Origin: Candidatus Eiseniibacteriota bacterium
GTDB lineage: Bacteria > Eisenbacteria > RBG-16-71-46
Assembly: GCA_038231135.1 (NCBI GenBank)
Contig: JBBRLX010000042.1
Location: forward strand, 1 to 28,705
Length of the DNA stretch: 28,705 nucleotides
Direction: 5' to 3'
Position numbers and translations under genes: made by a program. The notes below the pieces were generated by a model. It did no database searches and had not been told where the DNA came from. It saw nothing but the letters and a program-made list of their open reading frames with translations. This document shows, in pieces, positions 3,953-21,942 of the stretch (positions within the stretch are counted from its first letter, which is position 1; the number at the start of each line of letters is the position of its first letter).

Positions 3953-4477
3953 ATGATGAACCGGAACCAGCTCACCGAGACGTGGGACCTGCTGCGCCAG
4001 ACGCACGGCATCGGGCTGCGGGCGATCGCAGCGCTCCCCGCCGACAAGATCGACGCCACGGTGATCCCGAACATGCGCACGCCCAAGCAGCTCGTCGTTC
4101 ACATGTACGCCAGTGTGTTCCGCGAACTCGCCGAGGGCACGCTGCGCGGCAAGGTCCAGGAGATCGACGAGAAGCCGCTGTGCGATGGCATCAAGACGCA
4201 GGCGGAGCTGCTGCAGTTCGCGACGGCGCAGTGGCAGGCCGCCGACAAGGCGGTCTCGCAGATCACGGACACGCACCTCACGAACATGGTGTCCACCCCG
4301 TGGCAGTTCGAGGCGCCGGGTGCCGTGATCGTGGGATTCTGCCATGACGAGTATCTGCATCATCGCGGCCAGCTCTACGCGTACCTGCGCACGGTCGGCG
4401 CGGAGCCCCCGTTCCTGTGGGACTTCGAGCACAACGCGCCCGAGTACCAGCCGAAGCCGCAAACCGCCACGGCCTGA
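3953..4477 (+). CDS. DinB family protein (174 aa)
   Basis: Strong AGGAGGAGG RBS before ATG 3953. MRTPKQLVVHM and EYLHHRGQLYAYLRTVG carry the DinB His triad. Confidence 0.88.
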   Translation: MMNRNQLTETWDLLRQTHGIGLRAIAALPADKIDATVIPNMRTPKQLVVHMYASVFRELAEGTLRGKVQEIDEKPLCDGIKTQAELLQFATAQWQAADKAVSQITDTHLTNMVSTPWQFEAPGAVIVGFCHDEYLHHRGQLYAYLRTVGAEPPFLWDFEHNAPEYQPKPQTATA

Positions 4478-4506
4478 CCTCCGCGGCGCCTGACGCTGCC
4501 GGAACG

Positions 4507-4627
4507 TAAACAGAAACGGGATCCGCCTCGATGAGAAGCGGATCCCGTTTCAAATACGAGAGGGGGCTGTTGTCCGAGGATCGGGGGCCGCACCCAATAC
4601 CGTCGACGCAACCTCCCCCACTCTGAA
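4507..4627 (-). ncRNA. Candidate sRNA copy A (long irregular hairpin plus terminator)
   Basis: Shares an exact 33-mer (4563-4595) and 15-mer (4609-4623) with copy B. Folds as a ~65-nt rod with G-U pairs on the minus strand, followed by a terminator. Ends approximate. Confidence 0.55.
4513..4551. terminator. Intrinsic terminator hairpin, probably bidirectional
   Basis: Perfect 14-bp stem GAAACGGGATCCGC/GCGGATCCCGTTTC. Minus strand runs out through TTTCTGTTT; plus strand lies 35 nt after the DinB-family stop. Confidence 0.8.
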
Positions 4628-4734
4628 CTCTATTGATGTGTGGTTTCGCCGGAAGGGTCGGAGGTTCTTGCCGGGCGGCAATCCTTTGCAATTCCATGTG
4701 GAGCGATGTGTGTTTACAAATGTGGACACTTCGC

Positions 4735-4850
4735 GGAAATGCGAACGGGACCCGCCTTGCGATGGGTCCCGCCGGAAAATGAGAAAGGGGCTGTTGTCCG
4801 AGGATCGGGGGCCGCACCCGATTCCTTTGGATCAACCTCCCCCACTCATT
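4735..4850 (-). ncRNA. Candidate sRNA copy B (long irregular hairpin plus terminator-like stem)
   Basis: Exact 33-mer at 4787-4819 and 15-mer at 4833-4847, offset 224 nt from copy A. Downstream on minus is CGGGACCC...GGGTCCCG closed by a GCAA tetraloop. Ends approximate. Confidence 0.55.
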
Positions 4851-5050
4851 CATGTAGATGAGCGCATCCCCCGGGGAGTGCAGAAATAATTTGCCATCCA
4901 TGCATGTAGGTGGTTCCACGTAGGGAGTTCTTGGGTTGATCGATTCGCAACTTCCTTCGTCTAATAGAGCTGGCGCGGACCTGACACAATGCAATAATCT
5001 GCTGGCAATTTCGCACCGGGAGTCTGGCTCGTCATTCGAGGAGGTTTTCG

Positions 5051-5428
5051 ATGAACATGCGGCGTACGTGGATTGCAGCCGGCACACTCGGATTGCTCGC
5101 GGTTGTGGCCCTGATCGGCTGTTCGAAGAACAAGAGCACGAATCCGGGAGGTGGCGGCGGCACCGTGGAGCTCGGTTCGACGCTTCCTCCGGGCGGGTCC
5201 TTCAACCATCCGTTCGCCGCAGCCGGGTCGTTCCCCTATCACTGCAGCATCCATCCGATCATGACAGCCACGATCACGGTCGCCACCGGCGGCGCGGATT
5301 CCGCGGTCGTCAACATCACCGGTCCCACGGCGAACGGGTTCCAGCCTCAAACGGTCACGGTCAAGGTTGGCGGCTCGGTGCGGTGGACGAACTCCAGCAG
5401 CCAGACTCATACAGTCACCAGCAACTGA
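5051..5428 (+). CDS. Plastocyanin/amicyanin-like cupredoxin lipoprotein with permuted halves (125 aa)
   Basis: GAGGAGG RBS, lipobox LIGC (Cys24), YHCSIHPIM type-1 copper loop (C65, H68, M71), then FQPQTVTVKVGGSVRWTNSSSQTHTVTS (H120). Confidence 0.85.
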   Translation: MNMRRTWIAAGTLGLLAVVALIGCSKNKSTNPGGGGGTVELGSTLPPGGSFNHPFAAAGSFPYHCSIHPIMTATITVATGGADSAVVNITGPTANGFQPQTVTVKVGGSVRWTNSSSQTHTVTSN

Positions 5429-17226: not shown

Positions 17227-18696
17227 ATGCCACTCGACGACAGTGCCTGCTATCGCGCGTTCGTGACCCGCGACCGGAGGTTCGACGGCCGGTTCGTGAC
17301 CGCCGTCGTGACCACGCGCGTGTACTGCCGGCCGGGCTGTCCGGCGCGCACCCCGGCGCGGCGCAACGTGCGATTCTACCCGCATCCGGCCGCGGCCGAG
17401 GCCGCGGGATTCCGGCCGTGCCTGCGTTGTCGCCCCGAGACCGCCCCCGGCTCGCCGGCGTGGGACGGCACGTCCGCGACCGTCGCGCGCGCGCTGCGGC
17501 TGATCGACGAGGGCGCAATGGACGGCGCCGGCGTCGAGGCGCTCGCCGGCCGGCTCGGCGTGACGTCGCGCTGGCTGCGCCGGCTGTTCGCCGAGCAGAT
17601 CGGCGCGTCGCCGCTCGAAGTCGCGCGCACGCGCCGGGTGCACTTCGCGCGGCGCCTGCTCGACGCGACCGACCTGCCGCTCGAGGACTTGGCGCAGGCC
17701 GCGGGGTTTGGCAGCGCGCGCCGGCTGCACGATGCGATCCGCGCCACGTTCCACCGGCCGCCCGGCGTGCTGCGCCGGCGGCGCGCGATTCCCGGCGCGC
17801 CGGCCGGGGACCTGGCGCCGGATGCGCTCGAGTTGCGCCTGCCGGCGCGTGCGCCGTTCGCGGCGGCGCCGATCCTGGCGTTCCTCGCCGGACGCGCGAT
17901 TCCCGGCGTCGAGCGGGTCGCGAACGGCGCGTACACGCGGTCGGTGCGGATCGGCGACGCGACCGGGACGATCCGCGTGCGCGGCATCCCGGGGGAGCCG
18001 GCGCTCACGCTCGGCGTGCGCATGTCGTCATCGCTCGCGCTGCTCGCGATCGCGACGCGAATCACGCGCATGTTCGATCTCGACAGCGACACGCGCGCGA
18101 TCGCCGCGCACCTGAGGCGCGACCCGCGGCTCGCGCGCGTGGTCCCGGCTCACGGGCTGCGGTTGCCCGGCAGCTGGGATCCGTTCGAGACCGGCGTACG
18201 CGCGCTGATCGGCCAGCAGATCTCGGTGGCCGCTGCGCGCACGATCATCGGCCGGCTCGTGGTTCGCTGCGGCACGCCGCTCGCGGAGCCGGCCGGCGGC
18301 ATCACGCACGTGTTCCCGCCGCCCGCGACGGTCGCGGCCGCGGAGCTGTCCAGCCTCGGCCTGCCAGGCGCGCGCGTGGCGGCGCTGCGGGCGTTCGCGG
18401 CGGCGATCGCGGACGGCACGCTGGCGTTCGACGGACTGTCCGATCTCGACACGATCGTGACGCAACTTACCTCGCTGCCGGGAATCGGTCCCTGGACGGC
18501 GCACTACATCGCGATGCGCGCGCTCGGCCAGCCCGACGCGTTCCCCGCCAGCGATCTCGGCGTGCTCAAGGCGCTGGCGGTGAACGGCCGGTTGCCCACG
18601 GCGCGCGAGGCGATCGCGCGCGCGGAAGCATGGCGACCGTGGCGCGCGTACGCGGTGATCGCAATGTGGTCTGCACCCAAACCCAGGGAGACATGA
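17227..18696 (+). CDS. alkA: Bifunctional Ada-type regulator / DNA-3-methyladenine glycosylase II (AdaA-AlkA fusion)
   Basis: RDRRFDGRF, YCRPGC and RPCLRCRPE Zn site, AraC HTH (AGFGSARRL), AlkA N-terminal domain, GQQISV, HhH LPGIGPWTAHYIAMR, DAFPASDLG, WRPWRAYA. Confidence 0.93.
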   Translation: MPLDDSACYRAFVTRDRRFDGRFVTAVVTTRVYCRPGCPARTPARRNVRFYPHPAAAEAAGFRPCLRCRPETAPGSPAWDGTSATVARALRLIDEGAMDGAGVEALAGRLGVTSRWLRRLFAEQIGASPLEVARTRRVHFARRLLDATDLPLEDLAQAAGFGSARRLHDAIRATFHRPPGVLRRRRAIPGAPAGDLAPDALELRLPARAPFAAAPILAFLAGRAIPGVERVANGAYTRSVRIGDATGTIRVRGIPGEPALTLGVRMSSSLALLAIATRITRMFDLDSDTRAIAAHLRRDPRLARVVPAHGLRLPGSWDPFETGVRALIGQQISVAAARTIIGRLVVRCGTPLAEPAGGITHVFPPPATVAAAELSSLGLPGARVAALRAFAAAIADGTLAFDGLSDLDTIVTQLTSLPGIGPWTAHYIAMRALGQPDAFPASDLGVLKALAVNGRLPTAREAIARAEAWRPWRAYAVIAMWSAPKPRET

Positions 18697-19247
18697 TGCT
18701 GGAACGAGGCAATTTCGAGAGCCCGATCGGCCCGATTGCGCTGTTCGCGTACGACGACCGGCTGGTGGGACTGGAATTCGCGGACCGCGCAGAGCGGATC
18801 GAGGCATTGCAGGCAAAGCTCGAGCAGCGTCTCGACACCCCGGCGATGCGGGACGTCGTGGATCCCGCGGGCGCGGCGACGCGGCTGCGCGCGTATTTCG
18901 ACGGCGACCGCGACGCGCTCGCGGGCCAGCCGGTGACGCTGTACGGCACGCCGTTCCAGCGCGCCGTGTGGGCCGCGCTGTGCGAAATCCCCGCGGGCGT
19001 GACGTGGTCCTACGCGCAACTCGCGGAGCGCGTCGGCTGCCCGGGCGGCCAGCGCGCCGCGGGTGCCGCGAACGGTCGCAACCCCGTGTCGCTGGTCGTG
19101 CCATGCCATCGCGTGATCGCGTCGAGCGGCGCGCTGCACGGCTACGGCGGCGGGCTCGAGCGCAAGGCGTGGCTGCTCGAGCACGAAGGCGCGCGGGTCG
19201 CCCGACGGACGCTTCCCGGCATCGTGAGCGAGACCGTAACGGTCTAG
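18693..19247 (+). CDS. ogt: Methylated-DNA--protein-cysteine methyltransferase (184 aa)
   Basis: ATGA overlap with the alkA stop; GTPFQRAVW, IPAGVTWSYAQLA, NPVSLVVPCHRVI, GYGGGLERK. Confidence 0.95.
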   Translation: MMLERGNFESPIGPIALFAYDDRLVGLEFADRAERIEALQAKLEQRLDTPAMRDVVDPAGAATRLRAYFDGDRDALAGQPVTLYGTPFQRAVWAALCEIPAGVTWSYAQLAERVGCPGGQRAAGAANGRNPVSLVVPCHRVIASSGALHGYGGGLERKAWLLEHEGARVARRTLPGIVSETVTV

Positions 19248-19256
19248 ACTGGCGGG

Positions 19257-20717
19257 ATGCGCATCCTGTTCTGGTTCCGGAAGGACTTGAGGCTCGACGA
19301 CAATACGGGGCTGAGCGAGGCGGTGCGCGACGCCTCGGGCGACGTGGTGCCGTTCTACGCCAGCGAGCCCGCGATGCTCGCGCGCGAGGACATGGCCGCG
19401 ACGCGCGTACGGTTCGCGCTCGATTCGCTCGCGGATCTGTCGGACGCGATCGAGCGATCGGGCTCGCGGCTCGTGCTCGATCACGGCGACCCCGTGGCGA
19501 CCGTGCCGGCGGCGGCGCGAGCGGCGGGGACGGACGCGGTCTACTGGAACGACGAATACGAACCCGCGCTGCTCGCGCGCGACGCCGAGGTGGAGCGGGC
19601 GCTGCGGCAATCGGGCATCCGCGTCCGGCGGTTCCACGACCGGCTGCTGGTACCACCCGGCATCGTGACCACCATGGACGGCCAGCCATTCGTGATGTAC
19701 TCGCCGTTCCGGCGGGCGTGCGAGCGGCTGCCGATTGGCGCGCCGATGCCGGCGGTGACACGGCTCGGTGCGCACGAACTGCCGCAGCGCTCGCTCGCCT
19801 CGCTGGAACGGCTCGGGTTCGTCACGCACCAGGAACACTGGCCGGGCGGCACGCGCGCCGCGCACCGCCGGCTGCGGCGGTTCGCCGGCGGCACCGGCGC
19901 CACGCCCGGGGGCGGACTCGCGATCTACGCCGCGCAGCGCGATCAGCCGGCCGCGAACGCGACTTCGGGGCTGTCCGCCGATCTCAAATTCGGCACGCTG
20001 TCGCCACGGCAGGTGGCGCGCAACATCCGGGACGCCGCGGCGGCGGACGCGCGCCTCGTGCCCTCCGCGGACAAGTATGTGTCGGAACTCCGCTGGCGGG
20101 ACTTCTACGCGCACGTGATGTTCCACTTCCCACATTGCGAGTACGCGCCGTTCCGGCCGCGGTTCTCCGCACTGGAATGGGAGGACGATCCCCGCCTCAT
20201 CGCGGCATGGCGCGACGGCCGCACCGGCTACCCCATCGTCGACGCCGGTATGCGCCAACTCGATCTCACGGGCTTCATGCACAACCGGGTGCGGATGGTC
20301 GTGGCGTCGTTCCTCACGAAGACACTGCTCGCCAACTGGCAGCACGGCGAGCGCCATTTCATGAGGCGGCTGGTGGACGGCGATCTCGCGAGCAACAACG
20401 GCGGCTGGCAATGGGCCGCGTCGACCGGAACCGATCCGCAGCCCTACTTCCGCATCTTCAATCCGGTGTTGCAGGGCGAGAAATTCGACGCCACGGGCGC
20501 CTACGTGCGCCAGTGGCTGCCCGCGCTCGCGAAGCTGCCCGCGCGCTGGATCCACCGGCCATGGGAGGCTCCACCGTCGGCGCTGGCCGACGCGGGCGTG
20601 ACGCTCGGTACGACGTACCCCGCACCGGTCGTGAACCTCCGCGAACGCCGCGAGCGAGCGCTCGCCGTGTTCCAGGCGGCAGCGGATCCCCGGTCGAACC
20701 GCGACTTCGGTCTCTAG
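19257..20717 (+). CDS. phrB: Deoxyribodipyrimidine photolyase
   Basis: WFRKDLRLDDN, TSGLSADLKFG, SELRWRDF, GRTGYPIVDAGMRQL, GFMHNRVRM, LVDGDLASNNGGWQW, PYFRIFNP. Confidence 0.95.
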   Translation: MRILFWFRKDLRLDDNTGLSEAVRDASGDVVPFYASEPAMLAREDMAATRVRFALDSLADLSDAIERSGSRLVLDHGDPVATVPAAARAAGTDAVYWNDEYEPALLARDAEVERALRQSGIRVRRFHDRLLVPPGIVTTMDGQPFVMYSPFRRACERLPIGAPMPAVTRLGAHELPQRSLASLERLGFVTHQEHWPGGTRAAHRRLRRFAGGTGATPGGGLAIYAAQRDQPAANATSGLSADLKFGTLSPRQVARNIRDAAAADARLVPSADKYVSELRWRDFYAHVMFHFPHCEYAPFRPRFSALEWEDDPRLIAAWRDGRTGYPIVDAGMRQLDLTGFMHNRVRMVVASFLTKTLLANWQHGERHFMRRLVDGDLASNNGGWQWAASTGTDPQPYFRIFNPVLQGEKFDATGAYVRQWLPALAKLPARWIHRPWEAPPSALADAGVTLGTTYPAPVVNLRERRERALAVFQAAADPRSNRDFGL

Positions 20718-21559
20718 TTGGCCGCCGGTTTCCTCGCGCGGATGAATGCGCTCATGAATTGCCCTGCGACCTGCTTCGCCGCCGCATCCGCATCGATGCC
20801 CTGGGCCGAGAGGAACTCGCGCGCGTCCCCAATGTCGTACACGCGGGTGGGCTCCACGCTCACCTGATCGAATCCGGCACTCAAGAGTTTCGCGACGTAC
20901 TCCGACTCTTCCATCGCACCCGCTACGCATCCGACCCACAGCTCGACGCTCTTCCGGATCTCGGCCGGGACGGGGCCACGAACCACGACATCCGACACCG
21001 CGAACCGGCCGCCTGGCTTGAGCACCCGGAACGCCTCGGCCAGGACGCGGTCCTTGTCGCCGGAAAGGTTGATGACGCAGTTCGAAATGATCACGTCGAC
21101 GGACGAGTTCGGCAGCGGAATGCTCTCGATCTCACCCTTGAGAAATTCGACGTTCGTGAGGCCGGCTTCGGCCTGGTTCTTCCTCGCCAGCTCCAGCATT
21201 TGGTCCGTCATGTCGAGGCCATACGCTTTACCGGTTGGGCCGACACGGCGGGCGGAGAGCAGCACATCGATGCCGCCGCCCGATCCGAGATCGAGCACGA
21301 TCTCGCCGGACCCAAGCTCGGCGAGTGCCGTCGGATTCCCGCAGCCGAGAGAGGCGCGAACCGCGTTCTCTGGAAGCGAGCCCCTCTCGGAGTCATTGTA
21401 GAGGTTCGAAGTGATCGGATCGCCGCACGACGACTCGGCCGTCCCGCAGCACGCGGACCCAGCGGAGCTGCCGCAACAGGAACTATTCTCGCCTCGGACC
21501 GCCCGCTTGGCCGCCTCGCCGTACTTCTCGCGTACCACGTCCTTCAGATTGGCGCTCAT
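20714..21559 (-). CDS. arsM: Arsenite methyltransferase
   Basis: Cys-rich N-terminus SSCCG...[39 protein letters not shown]; downstream of arsR. Confidence 0.95.
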
Positions 21560-21942
21560 GAAGTTCTCCTCTTCGGCCCGATGTCACACAGCTTGACCAC
21601 CGCATCTGCGTTGATTGCCTGGCTTCGTGAACAACACTCCGCGAACAGGAATCCCAACAACTCCTCCAGCGCCACCGTATTCGCCGTGTAACGGAGGAAC
21701 GTGCTCTCGCGCTGGACCATCGCGAGTCCCTCGGCTTTGAGCTTCTCGAGGTGGTGCGAGAGGGTCGAGGCCGGGATGCCGAGTTCGGTTTGGATGTCGC
21801 CGACCACCATGCCGTCGGGATGGGCCGACAGCAGCAGGCGAAGGATCTGCAGCCGGACTTCGGTGCCGAGGGCCGCGAACATGTCGGCGTAGCGTGCCGT
21901 CTGGGCCGGAGTCGGCCTGGATGATTCGGTCCTTGATCGCAT
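21556..21942 (-). CDS. arsR: ArsR/SmtB family repressor with C-terminal CC pair
   Basis: [37 protein letters not shown]-coupled to arsM. Confidence 0.9.

Follow-up and report, generated by a model that had tools for sequence, protein, structure and literature searches.

A nearly invariant loop on tandem hairpin units marks a family of predicted small RNAs in an uncultured family of Candidatus Eisenbacteria

Two hairpin units beside a DinB-family gene

The window (the whole stretch of 28,705 nucleotides that was analyzed) is contig C42 of the source genome, G000, which amounts to 4.09 Mb. Two repeat units of 61 nt each, at 4563-4623 (unit A) and 4787-4847 (unit B), sit in the gap between a gene encoding a DinB-family protein (3953..4477, + strand; Pfam DinB, E 1e-10) and one encoding a small cupredoxin-like protein (5051..5428, + strand; Pfam Copper-bind, E 4e-4, just below the cut-off). 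Read on the minus strand, the units converge on the first gene and diverge from the second, and both genes serve here as context only. The DinB-family gene is also the neighbor in genomes G001, G013, and G025, and the place of the cupredoxin-like gene is taken in relatives by a gene of the DtxR/MntR family (Fe_dep_repress in locus L002). At that place the window has an AT-richer stretch, 4880-5050, running from the promoter of unit B to the cupredoxin-like gene. Farther along, positions 17227-21942 carry an Ada/AlkA repair gene, a DNA photolyase, and a methyltransferase with an ArsR-type regulator. No tRNA or tmRNA was found in the window.

The preliminary description of this DNA presented the units as paralogs 224 nt apart, sharing an identical 15-mer and an identical 33-mer on either side of a variable 13-mer, and sequence comparison bears this out: the units are 89% identical (BLAST E 1e-15) and differ in the 13-mer. 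The identity of the 33-mer probably reflects recent duplication or gene conversion in the lineage of the window. Neither BLAST nor nhmmer found further significant copies in the 4.09 Mb of G000. A degenerate third copy, at G000:C30:11742-11807 on the plus strand (L467:3743-3808), scores 21.9 bits with an E value of 0.004 in 41 kb, which is borderline genome-wide; it lies directly 3' of a DUF5131 gene. The surrounding island, next to tRNA-Glu, also encodes a DNA methylase and an integrase of the phage type. The units are thus not a high-copy dispersed repeat, genomes having one to five copies and G000 two plus the degenerate one. G000 does have a dispersed repeat of about 100 nt, unrelated to the RNA family, in at least nine intergenic regions (on contigs C43, C37, C31, C30, C28, C25, C2, C16, and C15).

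On the minus strand, both units form a long hairpin with imperfect pairing, and a second hairpin resembling a terminator comes after it. The minus strand, proposed from the outset as the RNA strand, folds better than the plus strand in both cases (z of -6.0 versus -4.8 for unit A and -4.4 versus -3.3 for unit B). The conserved imperfect hairpins, supported by folding, alignment, and covariation, take up about 57 nt each, at 4563..4619 (unit A) and 4787..4843 (unit B), and by themselves they are only modestly stable relative to shuffled sequences (z of -1.2 and -2.4). The predicted transcripts, with ends inferred from promoter spacing and terminator, are more clearly so: small RNA A (4505..4626, minus strand, about 120 nt) has a fold z of -6.88 and small RNA B (4737..4849, minus strand, about 113 nt) one of -4.05 (-6.9 and -4.1 when rounded), and none of 200 shuffles was as stable. 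The two score 47.6 and 58 bits, respectively, with the covariance model R2 described below.

Each unit had been described as possessing its own terminator-like hairpin. Such a hairpin does follow both; a scan for U-tails passes only that of unit A, an intrinsic-terminator-like hairpin of 17 bp with a U-rich tail (4513..4551, minus strand). The hairpin of unit B (4744..4773, minus strand) has a weak U-tail, was missed by the scan, and was identified from the fold. The single site found by the scan compares with 1.0 expected by chance.

Upstream of each unit is a predicted promoter, again on the minus strand. The hexamer common to both units and offered earlier as a possible -10 element is real and turns out to be the -10 half of a two-part motif. 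For unit B, the predicted -10 element (4855..4860) is separated by a 16-nt spacer from a predicted -35 element of the ECF type (4877..4881), with a score of 12.5 on a position weight matrix (PWM) built from 73 other copies. For unit A, the predicted -10 element (4633..4638) has the same spacing from a degenerate -35 element (4655..4659), with a score of 10.1. No sigma-70 promoter was found for the units.

A coding function was considered and rejected. A minus-strand ORF of 269 amino acids (4278-5087) covers both units, but the gene caller passed over it, and the homologs of the units have indels and occupy varied contexts. In soil metatranscriptomes (two runs of equal size, possibly a single data set), only contigs with a depth of 2 run over 4332-4612, from the DinB end into unit A; the same two runs gave nothing over a second family member.

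A family of covarying hairpins

The preliminary description did not recognize the units as members of any family, and they remain outside those of Rfam 15: at the gathering threshold, there was no match in the window, in the region, or over the hairpins of 20 + 10 homologous loci. The best score, 22.6 bits against a threshold of 39 (BjrC68), lay over the terminator. Identity with 6S or SRP RNA was also rejected, both genes having been located elsewhere in G000.

Relatives of the units are nonetheless easily found. When 61 genomes were searched at the DNA level, G001, from the same genus, proved to have three copies in tandem and G013 a single one, at the same DinB-side place. A first covariance model, from six copies, matched weakly in 64 of the 89 genomes of the window's family within Candidatus Eisenbacteria. 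The second, R2, built from 46 copies, matches in 73 of the 89, in 39 of the 44 of high quality, and in 26 of 28 genera, with one to five copies per genome and a single copy in most. Beyond the family it found nothing in the genomes sampled: none of 95 from other families of the class and, in a draw at the level of the phylum that brought up the same family labels, none of the 86 from outside the family (counts for sister families include an unpublished genome, G038).

A fixed-length pattern, searched for in 185,579 species with one genome apiece, turned up 74 loci, and R2 scores 73 of them, the exception being a lone actinobacterial locus. By their titles, 51 of the 74 belong to Candidatus Eisenbacteria, 14 carry no taxon, and nine are assigned to other groups. 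Of these last, all but one score with R2, and identical or syntenic flanks suggest that the eight come from the same family under different labels. The same pattern gave at least 120 loci in metagenomes. The first pattern hit in G074 (L009) proved to be a chance match within coding DNA. A phage origin was rejected: there were no exact viral hits, and 19 looser ones yielded one weak partial match and none of full length.

If the hairpin matters as RNA, its two arms should change together, and the preliminary description had called for such a check among homologs. Covariation was found in two alignments, by our own counts of pairs in place of R-scape and with relatedness uncorrected. In a MAFFT alignment of 46 sequences (A5), two-sided changes occur at 11 of 17 pairs, pairing extends to 88.7% of cells, and the 5-bp apical helix is paired throughout (100%); none of 500 shuffles reached the observed measures, and slid controls gave 64.5% at most. 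The second alignment (A8), gapless, consists of 66 metagenome copies (65 distinct) from outside the training of the model, selected with a pattern in which a portion of the apical helix is fixed, and many of them close kin of the training genomes. There, 94.3% of cells are paired as opposed to at most 55.7% in slid controls, and 41 cells have two-sided changes as opposed to 13.7 in shuffles. Two-sided changes affect 6 of 11 pairs, a number reached by 19 of 500 shuffles. The basal helix shifts in sequence and register between sub-groups. In sum, the sequence of the stem is free to vary, while the loop and the length of the helix are constant.

This pattern does not fit the idea that the 3' arm of the hairpin, with a particular hexamer in it, acts as an invariant seed. 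The arm is paired and variable and forms part of a covarying helix, and by a count made by eye, the hexamer occurs at that place in 2 of the 46 rows of A5 (the window's own two only) and in 3 of the 66 rows of A8. The broader proposal, that these are duplicated stand-alone sRNA genes, fares better without its seed: the units are paralogous, they read on the minus strand, each has its own -10 element and terminator-like hairpin, and their homologs covary.

The units very probably belong to a real family of structured RNA genes. The family is uncatalogued; its members are likely genes for small RNAs whose general type is familiar and whose loop is unexplained. In the portions of the literature covered, no description of an sRNA from Candidatus Eisenbacteria was found, and Eisenbacteria together with sRNA gave work on CsrA only. 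The main text of a 2026 preprint on a genomic language model (10.64898/2026.10.21.760802) names neither the taxon nor the motif.

Promoters, contexts, and multiplication

The two-part motif is a property of the family. Of 90 contexts examined 5' of hairpins, a motif could be assigned in 81, and in 66 of these the spacer is 16 nt. The motif scores at least 10 in 94 of 116 metagenome copies and in none of 117 control regions. A downstream fold of -15 kcal/mol or lower follows 116 of 118 metagenome copies, an energy figure without a control set. The motif has the form of a promoter for an ECF sigma factor, as predicted from its sequence, and resembles the sigma-E elements of Fusobacterium in the part of that account available (PMC9546586).

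Which sigma factor might be responsible? An operon encoding an ECF sigma factor, a zinc-finger anti-sigma factor, and an HtrA-like protease is present in 69 of 70 genomes (in G000 at C5:24983-27416, L254; elsewhere L270-L299). It has its own conserved motif just 5' of the start of the sigma gene, in all 30 of the loci printed, with a -35 element of the same type as that of the RNA motif but a different -10 element, and none of the 30 scores 10 or more with the RNA matrix. For this lineage there are now two consensus motifs of ECF promoters, each distinct from the other. In G000, 18 of 2072 upstream regions score at least 12, against 2 controls, and secA and surA are among them; surA has the motif at 4 of 28 loci, against 1 control. 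A sigma-E envelope-stress regulon is thus not supported, because the rpoE-like operon lacks the RNA motif, having another -10 element, and the motif of surA is not conserved. Nor did any of 19 sigma-region-4 hits in G000 have a strong copy of the motif (best score 7.2). The ECF sigma factors of G000 number about 13.

A few divergent copies appear to have been placed under different control. Four of them (L468-L471, from G014, G013, G025, and G108) lie head to head with a gene for a sigma-54 activator and lack the ECF motif. Three of these four have a motif of the sigma-54 type, as do 2 of 90 other contexts, judged against the general sigma-54 consensus.

The family recurs in at least three unrelated contexts: between a deoxynucleoside kinase gene and the gene for a sigma-54 response regulator, between a putative rho (read as such from an ATP-synt_ab hit) and efp, and between a DtxR/MntR gene and the DinB-family gene. 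Further sites are represented once. The downstream neighbor is nearly always on the opposite strand. With neighbors mostly opposed in strand and contexts unrelated, the pattern fits a stand-alone gene that would act in trans. The two sites most often occupied in relatives, between the kinase/regulator pair (C3:84028-84099) and the rho/efp pair (C33:15992-16020), exist in G000 as well, the gaps being too short to hold a copy. A functional link to the DtxR/MntR neighbor was considered and dropped; the association is confined to one sub-lineage, and G000 has a distant match, 32% identical, elsewhere.

Units have multiplied in two ways. Tandem genes may each have a promoter, as with the two in G000, three in G001, and four in L396, or several hairpins may lie behind one promoter and before one terminator, as with four in L085, at least three in L389, four in L413, and two in L435. 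L378 likewise has a series of hairpins served by a single promoter, and in L413 the units are separated by small additional hairpins. For the four-hairpin RNA of L085, the minimum-energy fold pairs neighboring units with one another, and the centroid keeps two local hairpins.

Might the units instead be a repeat acting at the level of DNA, a pair of terminators, or a cis-acting leader, with no separate RNA gene? Transcription at this locus is predicted, and a few divergent copies (L127, L453, and L082) do lie 5' of genes on the same strand and lack the ECF motif. Against this are the strand-specific G-U pairs and the two-sided changes, the promoter motif and downstream hairpin that accompany the units, the low copy number, and the downstream neighbors that are nearly always on the opposite strand. 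All told, such an explanation seems very improbable.

The apical loop and its closest counterparts

The apical motif of 9 nt, consisting of a closing G-C pair and a 7-nt loop (4585..4593 in unit A, also recovered by a scan for motif sites, and 4809..4817 in unit B, both on the minus strand), occupies nearly invariant columns of the alignments. Most of the sequence sets were selected on this motif, and its invariance is thus partly built in; in 20 full-length hits of the covariance model, which weights the motif without requiring it, the motif was unchanged in 19 and had a single change in one. The loop is also the most accessible conserved stretch. It lacks the CsrA triplet, judging from alignments A5 and A8, and in the same alignments it is not a C-rich anti-Shine-Dalgarno sequence of the sort described in the available parts of two reports (PMC4615179, PMC5880928). 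No match to the loop motif on a bacterial RNA was found in the literature among the matches listed. Partial copies at L128 (G015) and L087 (G104) consist of the apical stem and loop only; they are intergenic and lack the promoter motif.

Loops of small RNAs may bind protein. In the Csr/Rsm RNAs, the loop binds and titrates a protein. We tentatively favor a function of this kind, with somewhat less than even confidence: the units would be tandem copies of a lineage-specific hairpin whose loop titrates an RNA-binding protein. A predicted ECF-sigma promoter would drive a small RNA that stands alone and measures about 115-120 nt; its long stem would present the invariant loop at its tip to the protein, and more copies, or more hairpins per transcript, would supply more binding sites. 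A rise in the number of hairpins and the adoption of a second type of promoter are what a dose-dependent decoy would show, and they point to titration. We also count in its favor the spread of the family, the covariation, the combination of variable stem and fixed loop, the promoter motif, the contexts, the amplification, and the sigma-54 copies, along with the finding of no Hfq in G000 (93% complete).

Several observations count against titration. No partner protein was found, most genomes have a single copy (a modest dose for a sponge), and the array of L085 is predicted to cross-pair. Copies of the hairpin in mRNA leaders were looked for in G000 and not found: among 169 motif sites, eight have at least four pairs in the stem, compared with 3% when control loops are used, and units A and B account for two of these eight. 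Also, known multicopy sRNAs with invariant loops that are not CsrA targets act by pairing, or are proposed to, in the portions of the reports at hand (PMC5880928, PMC4615179).

Pairing between the loop and mRNA is accordingly a close rival. The RNA would be an sRNA independent of Hfq, its 7-nt loop a seed for one or a few mRNAs, and within an ECF stress response it would supply the repression, in the manner of FoxI. We consider this a substantial possibility, if a less probable one. Its anatomy and the behavior of its copy number are those of LhrC1-5 and the cuckoo RNAs; loop A of LhrC pairs with a Shine-Dalgarno site of 7 nt, and for the loops of the cuckoo RNAs, RNA pairing is proposed (PMC5880928 and PMC4615179, each in the part available). 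FoxI, driven by an ECF sigma factor, represses mRNAs without Hfq, according to the accessible part of its description (PMC9546586). Pairing would also employ the most accessible conserved part of the molecule, and the full 9-nt complement occurs within -60..+40 of the start codon in seven G000 genes, in one of them directly before the ribosome-binding site.

The loop, however, is no anti-Shine-Dalgarno sequence, and its 7-nt complement ranks 21st of 140 heptamers of the same composition around 3039 start codons of G000. Sites complementary to the loop beside the ribosome-binding site are not enriched across genomes, which counts as well in favor of titration: there are 610 in 61 family genomes (10.0 each) as opposed to 83 in nine sister-family genomes (9.2 each) that have no copy by covariance model, and in most genomes the number falls below that of a reversed-pattern control. 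Among 20 gene families with at least five members in the fetched loci, none has a conserved site (1 of 5 and 3 of 29 at best). These tests of pairing are negative but weak, and tests of enrichment are blind to one or two conserved mRNA targets. A single 7-nt complement in 16S rRNA, at position 912 in G000, was taken to be due to chance, because the region is, we presume, folded and widely conserved.

Perhaps the protein is CsrA after all, its specificity in this lineage having shifted to the new loop, with the RNA as its antagonist. CsrA is core to the order (96 of 102 genomes; in G000, csrA is at C1:164849-165007, L222), searches of G000 turned up neither FliW nor flagellin, and the multi-hairpin forms recall the Csr/Rsm RNAs. 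A published model, in the part of the report available, predicts that few CsrA proteins of Eisenbacteria act on the standard target (PMC13443453). The loop has no CsrA triplet, though, and the same CsrA is found in 13 of 13 genomes of two sister families, with the RNA in none of the nine of these that were scanned. The leader of csrA in G000 still has several canonical triplets. This makes a shifted CsrA quite improbable; a scan of G000 for a separate CsrB-like RNA gave no clear candidate.

Finally, the loop might serve neither titration nor regulatory pairing but the assembly of RNA with RNA, through kissing loops, or a structural role or that of a nuclease decoy. Its last four bases are self-complementary, and the degenerate copy of G000 lies in an island with an integrase. 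Four-base palindromes are common by chance, however, the island copy scores only 21.9 bits, and the 19 viral pattern hits came down to the one weak partial match. Anticodon loops of tRNA carry conserved bases, and the 5-bp stem with its 7-nt loop lacks them. Such functions seem quite improbable.

Returning to titration by the loop, a more ambitious version may be drawn. The small RNA, core to this family of uncultured bacteria, would sequester a regulator that binds RNA and is yet to be described, by means of a loop that resembles no Csr, anti-Shine-Dalgarno, or 6S signal. This would be a new system of protein titration, tuned by duplication and multi-hairpin arrays, rewired in some lineages to sigma-54 activators, and possibly mimicked by an integrative element. 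In this full form, the proposal is on the doubtful side. The loop fits neither of the two customary accounts of multicopy loop RNAs, CsrA titration and anti-Shine-Dalgarno pairing, so its partner is likely to be either an RNA-binding regulator not seen before or a target site of an unusual type. A near-core, covarying family with a sharp promoter motif and one invariant loop makes experiments in vitro possible without culture of the host.

The comparisons with known systems that follow hold for the available portions of the reports cited. Among the closest are the cuckoo/CcsR RNAs (RSs0680) of alphaproteobacteria, which also have an invariant loop on stems that vary in a compensatory fashion, two to four hairpins per RNA, clusters of paralogs, a promoter for an alternative sigma factor, and a terminator after the cluster (PMC4615179). 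Their loop, however, is a C-rich anti-Shine-Dalgarno sequence, and RSs0680a binds Hfq and is co-transcribed with the upstream gene (PMC4615179). The RNA of Eisenbacteria has no anti-Shine-Dalgarno loop, a stem of about 25 bp, and no sequence match to them, and Hfq was not found.

LhrC1-5 of Listeria monocytogenes are likewise multicopy siblings whose loop carries the function, each with a stress-induced promoter where the units of Eisenbacteria each have a predicted one (PMC5880928). LhrC differs in having three CU-rich regions directed at Shine-Dalgarno sites and in its dependence on LisRK, as against one G/C-rich loop and an ECF-type promoter (PMC5880928). Pxr of myxobacteria is similarly restricted to a lineage, about 110 nt long, and mostly single copy, with tandem paralogs that each have a promoter; it too adjoins a gene for a sigma-54 response regulator, and a base of its first loop is essential (PMC5568312). 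Unlike the RNA of Eisenbacteria, Pxr is transcribed from a sigma-54 promoter and folds into three stem-loops (PMC5568312). The RNA of Eisenbacteria has no Rfam match, and its main copies have ECF-type promoters and are convergent with the gene for the sigma-54 regulator.

FoxI of Fusobacterium nucleatum shares the ECF-sigma type of promoter, with similar -35 and -10 elements, and a genome without Hfq, but its membership in a sigma-E envelope regulon is proven, and the mRNAs it represses are those of membrane proteins (PMC9546586). In Eisenbacteria, the rpoE-like sigma gene has a -10 element other than that of the RNA. The same holds for comparison with sigma-E-dependent sRNAs in general (MicA, RybB, FoxI): the two-part ECF-type promoter is common to all, and the sharing of a promoter with the rpoE operon and envelope genes is not seen here.

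CsrB and RsmY/Z are sponge RNAs of the Csr/Rsm systems, with repeated hairpin loops and several paralogs. They differ from the RNA of Eisenbacteria, whose loop lacks the CsrA triplet and most of whose members have one hairpin, in a lineage where CsrA itself is encoded (as in G000). What the two have in common is the repetition of loops, the existence of several paralogs under different signals, and, as proposed here, titration.
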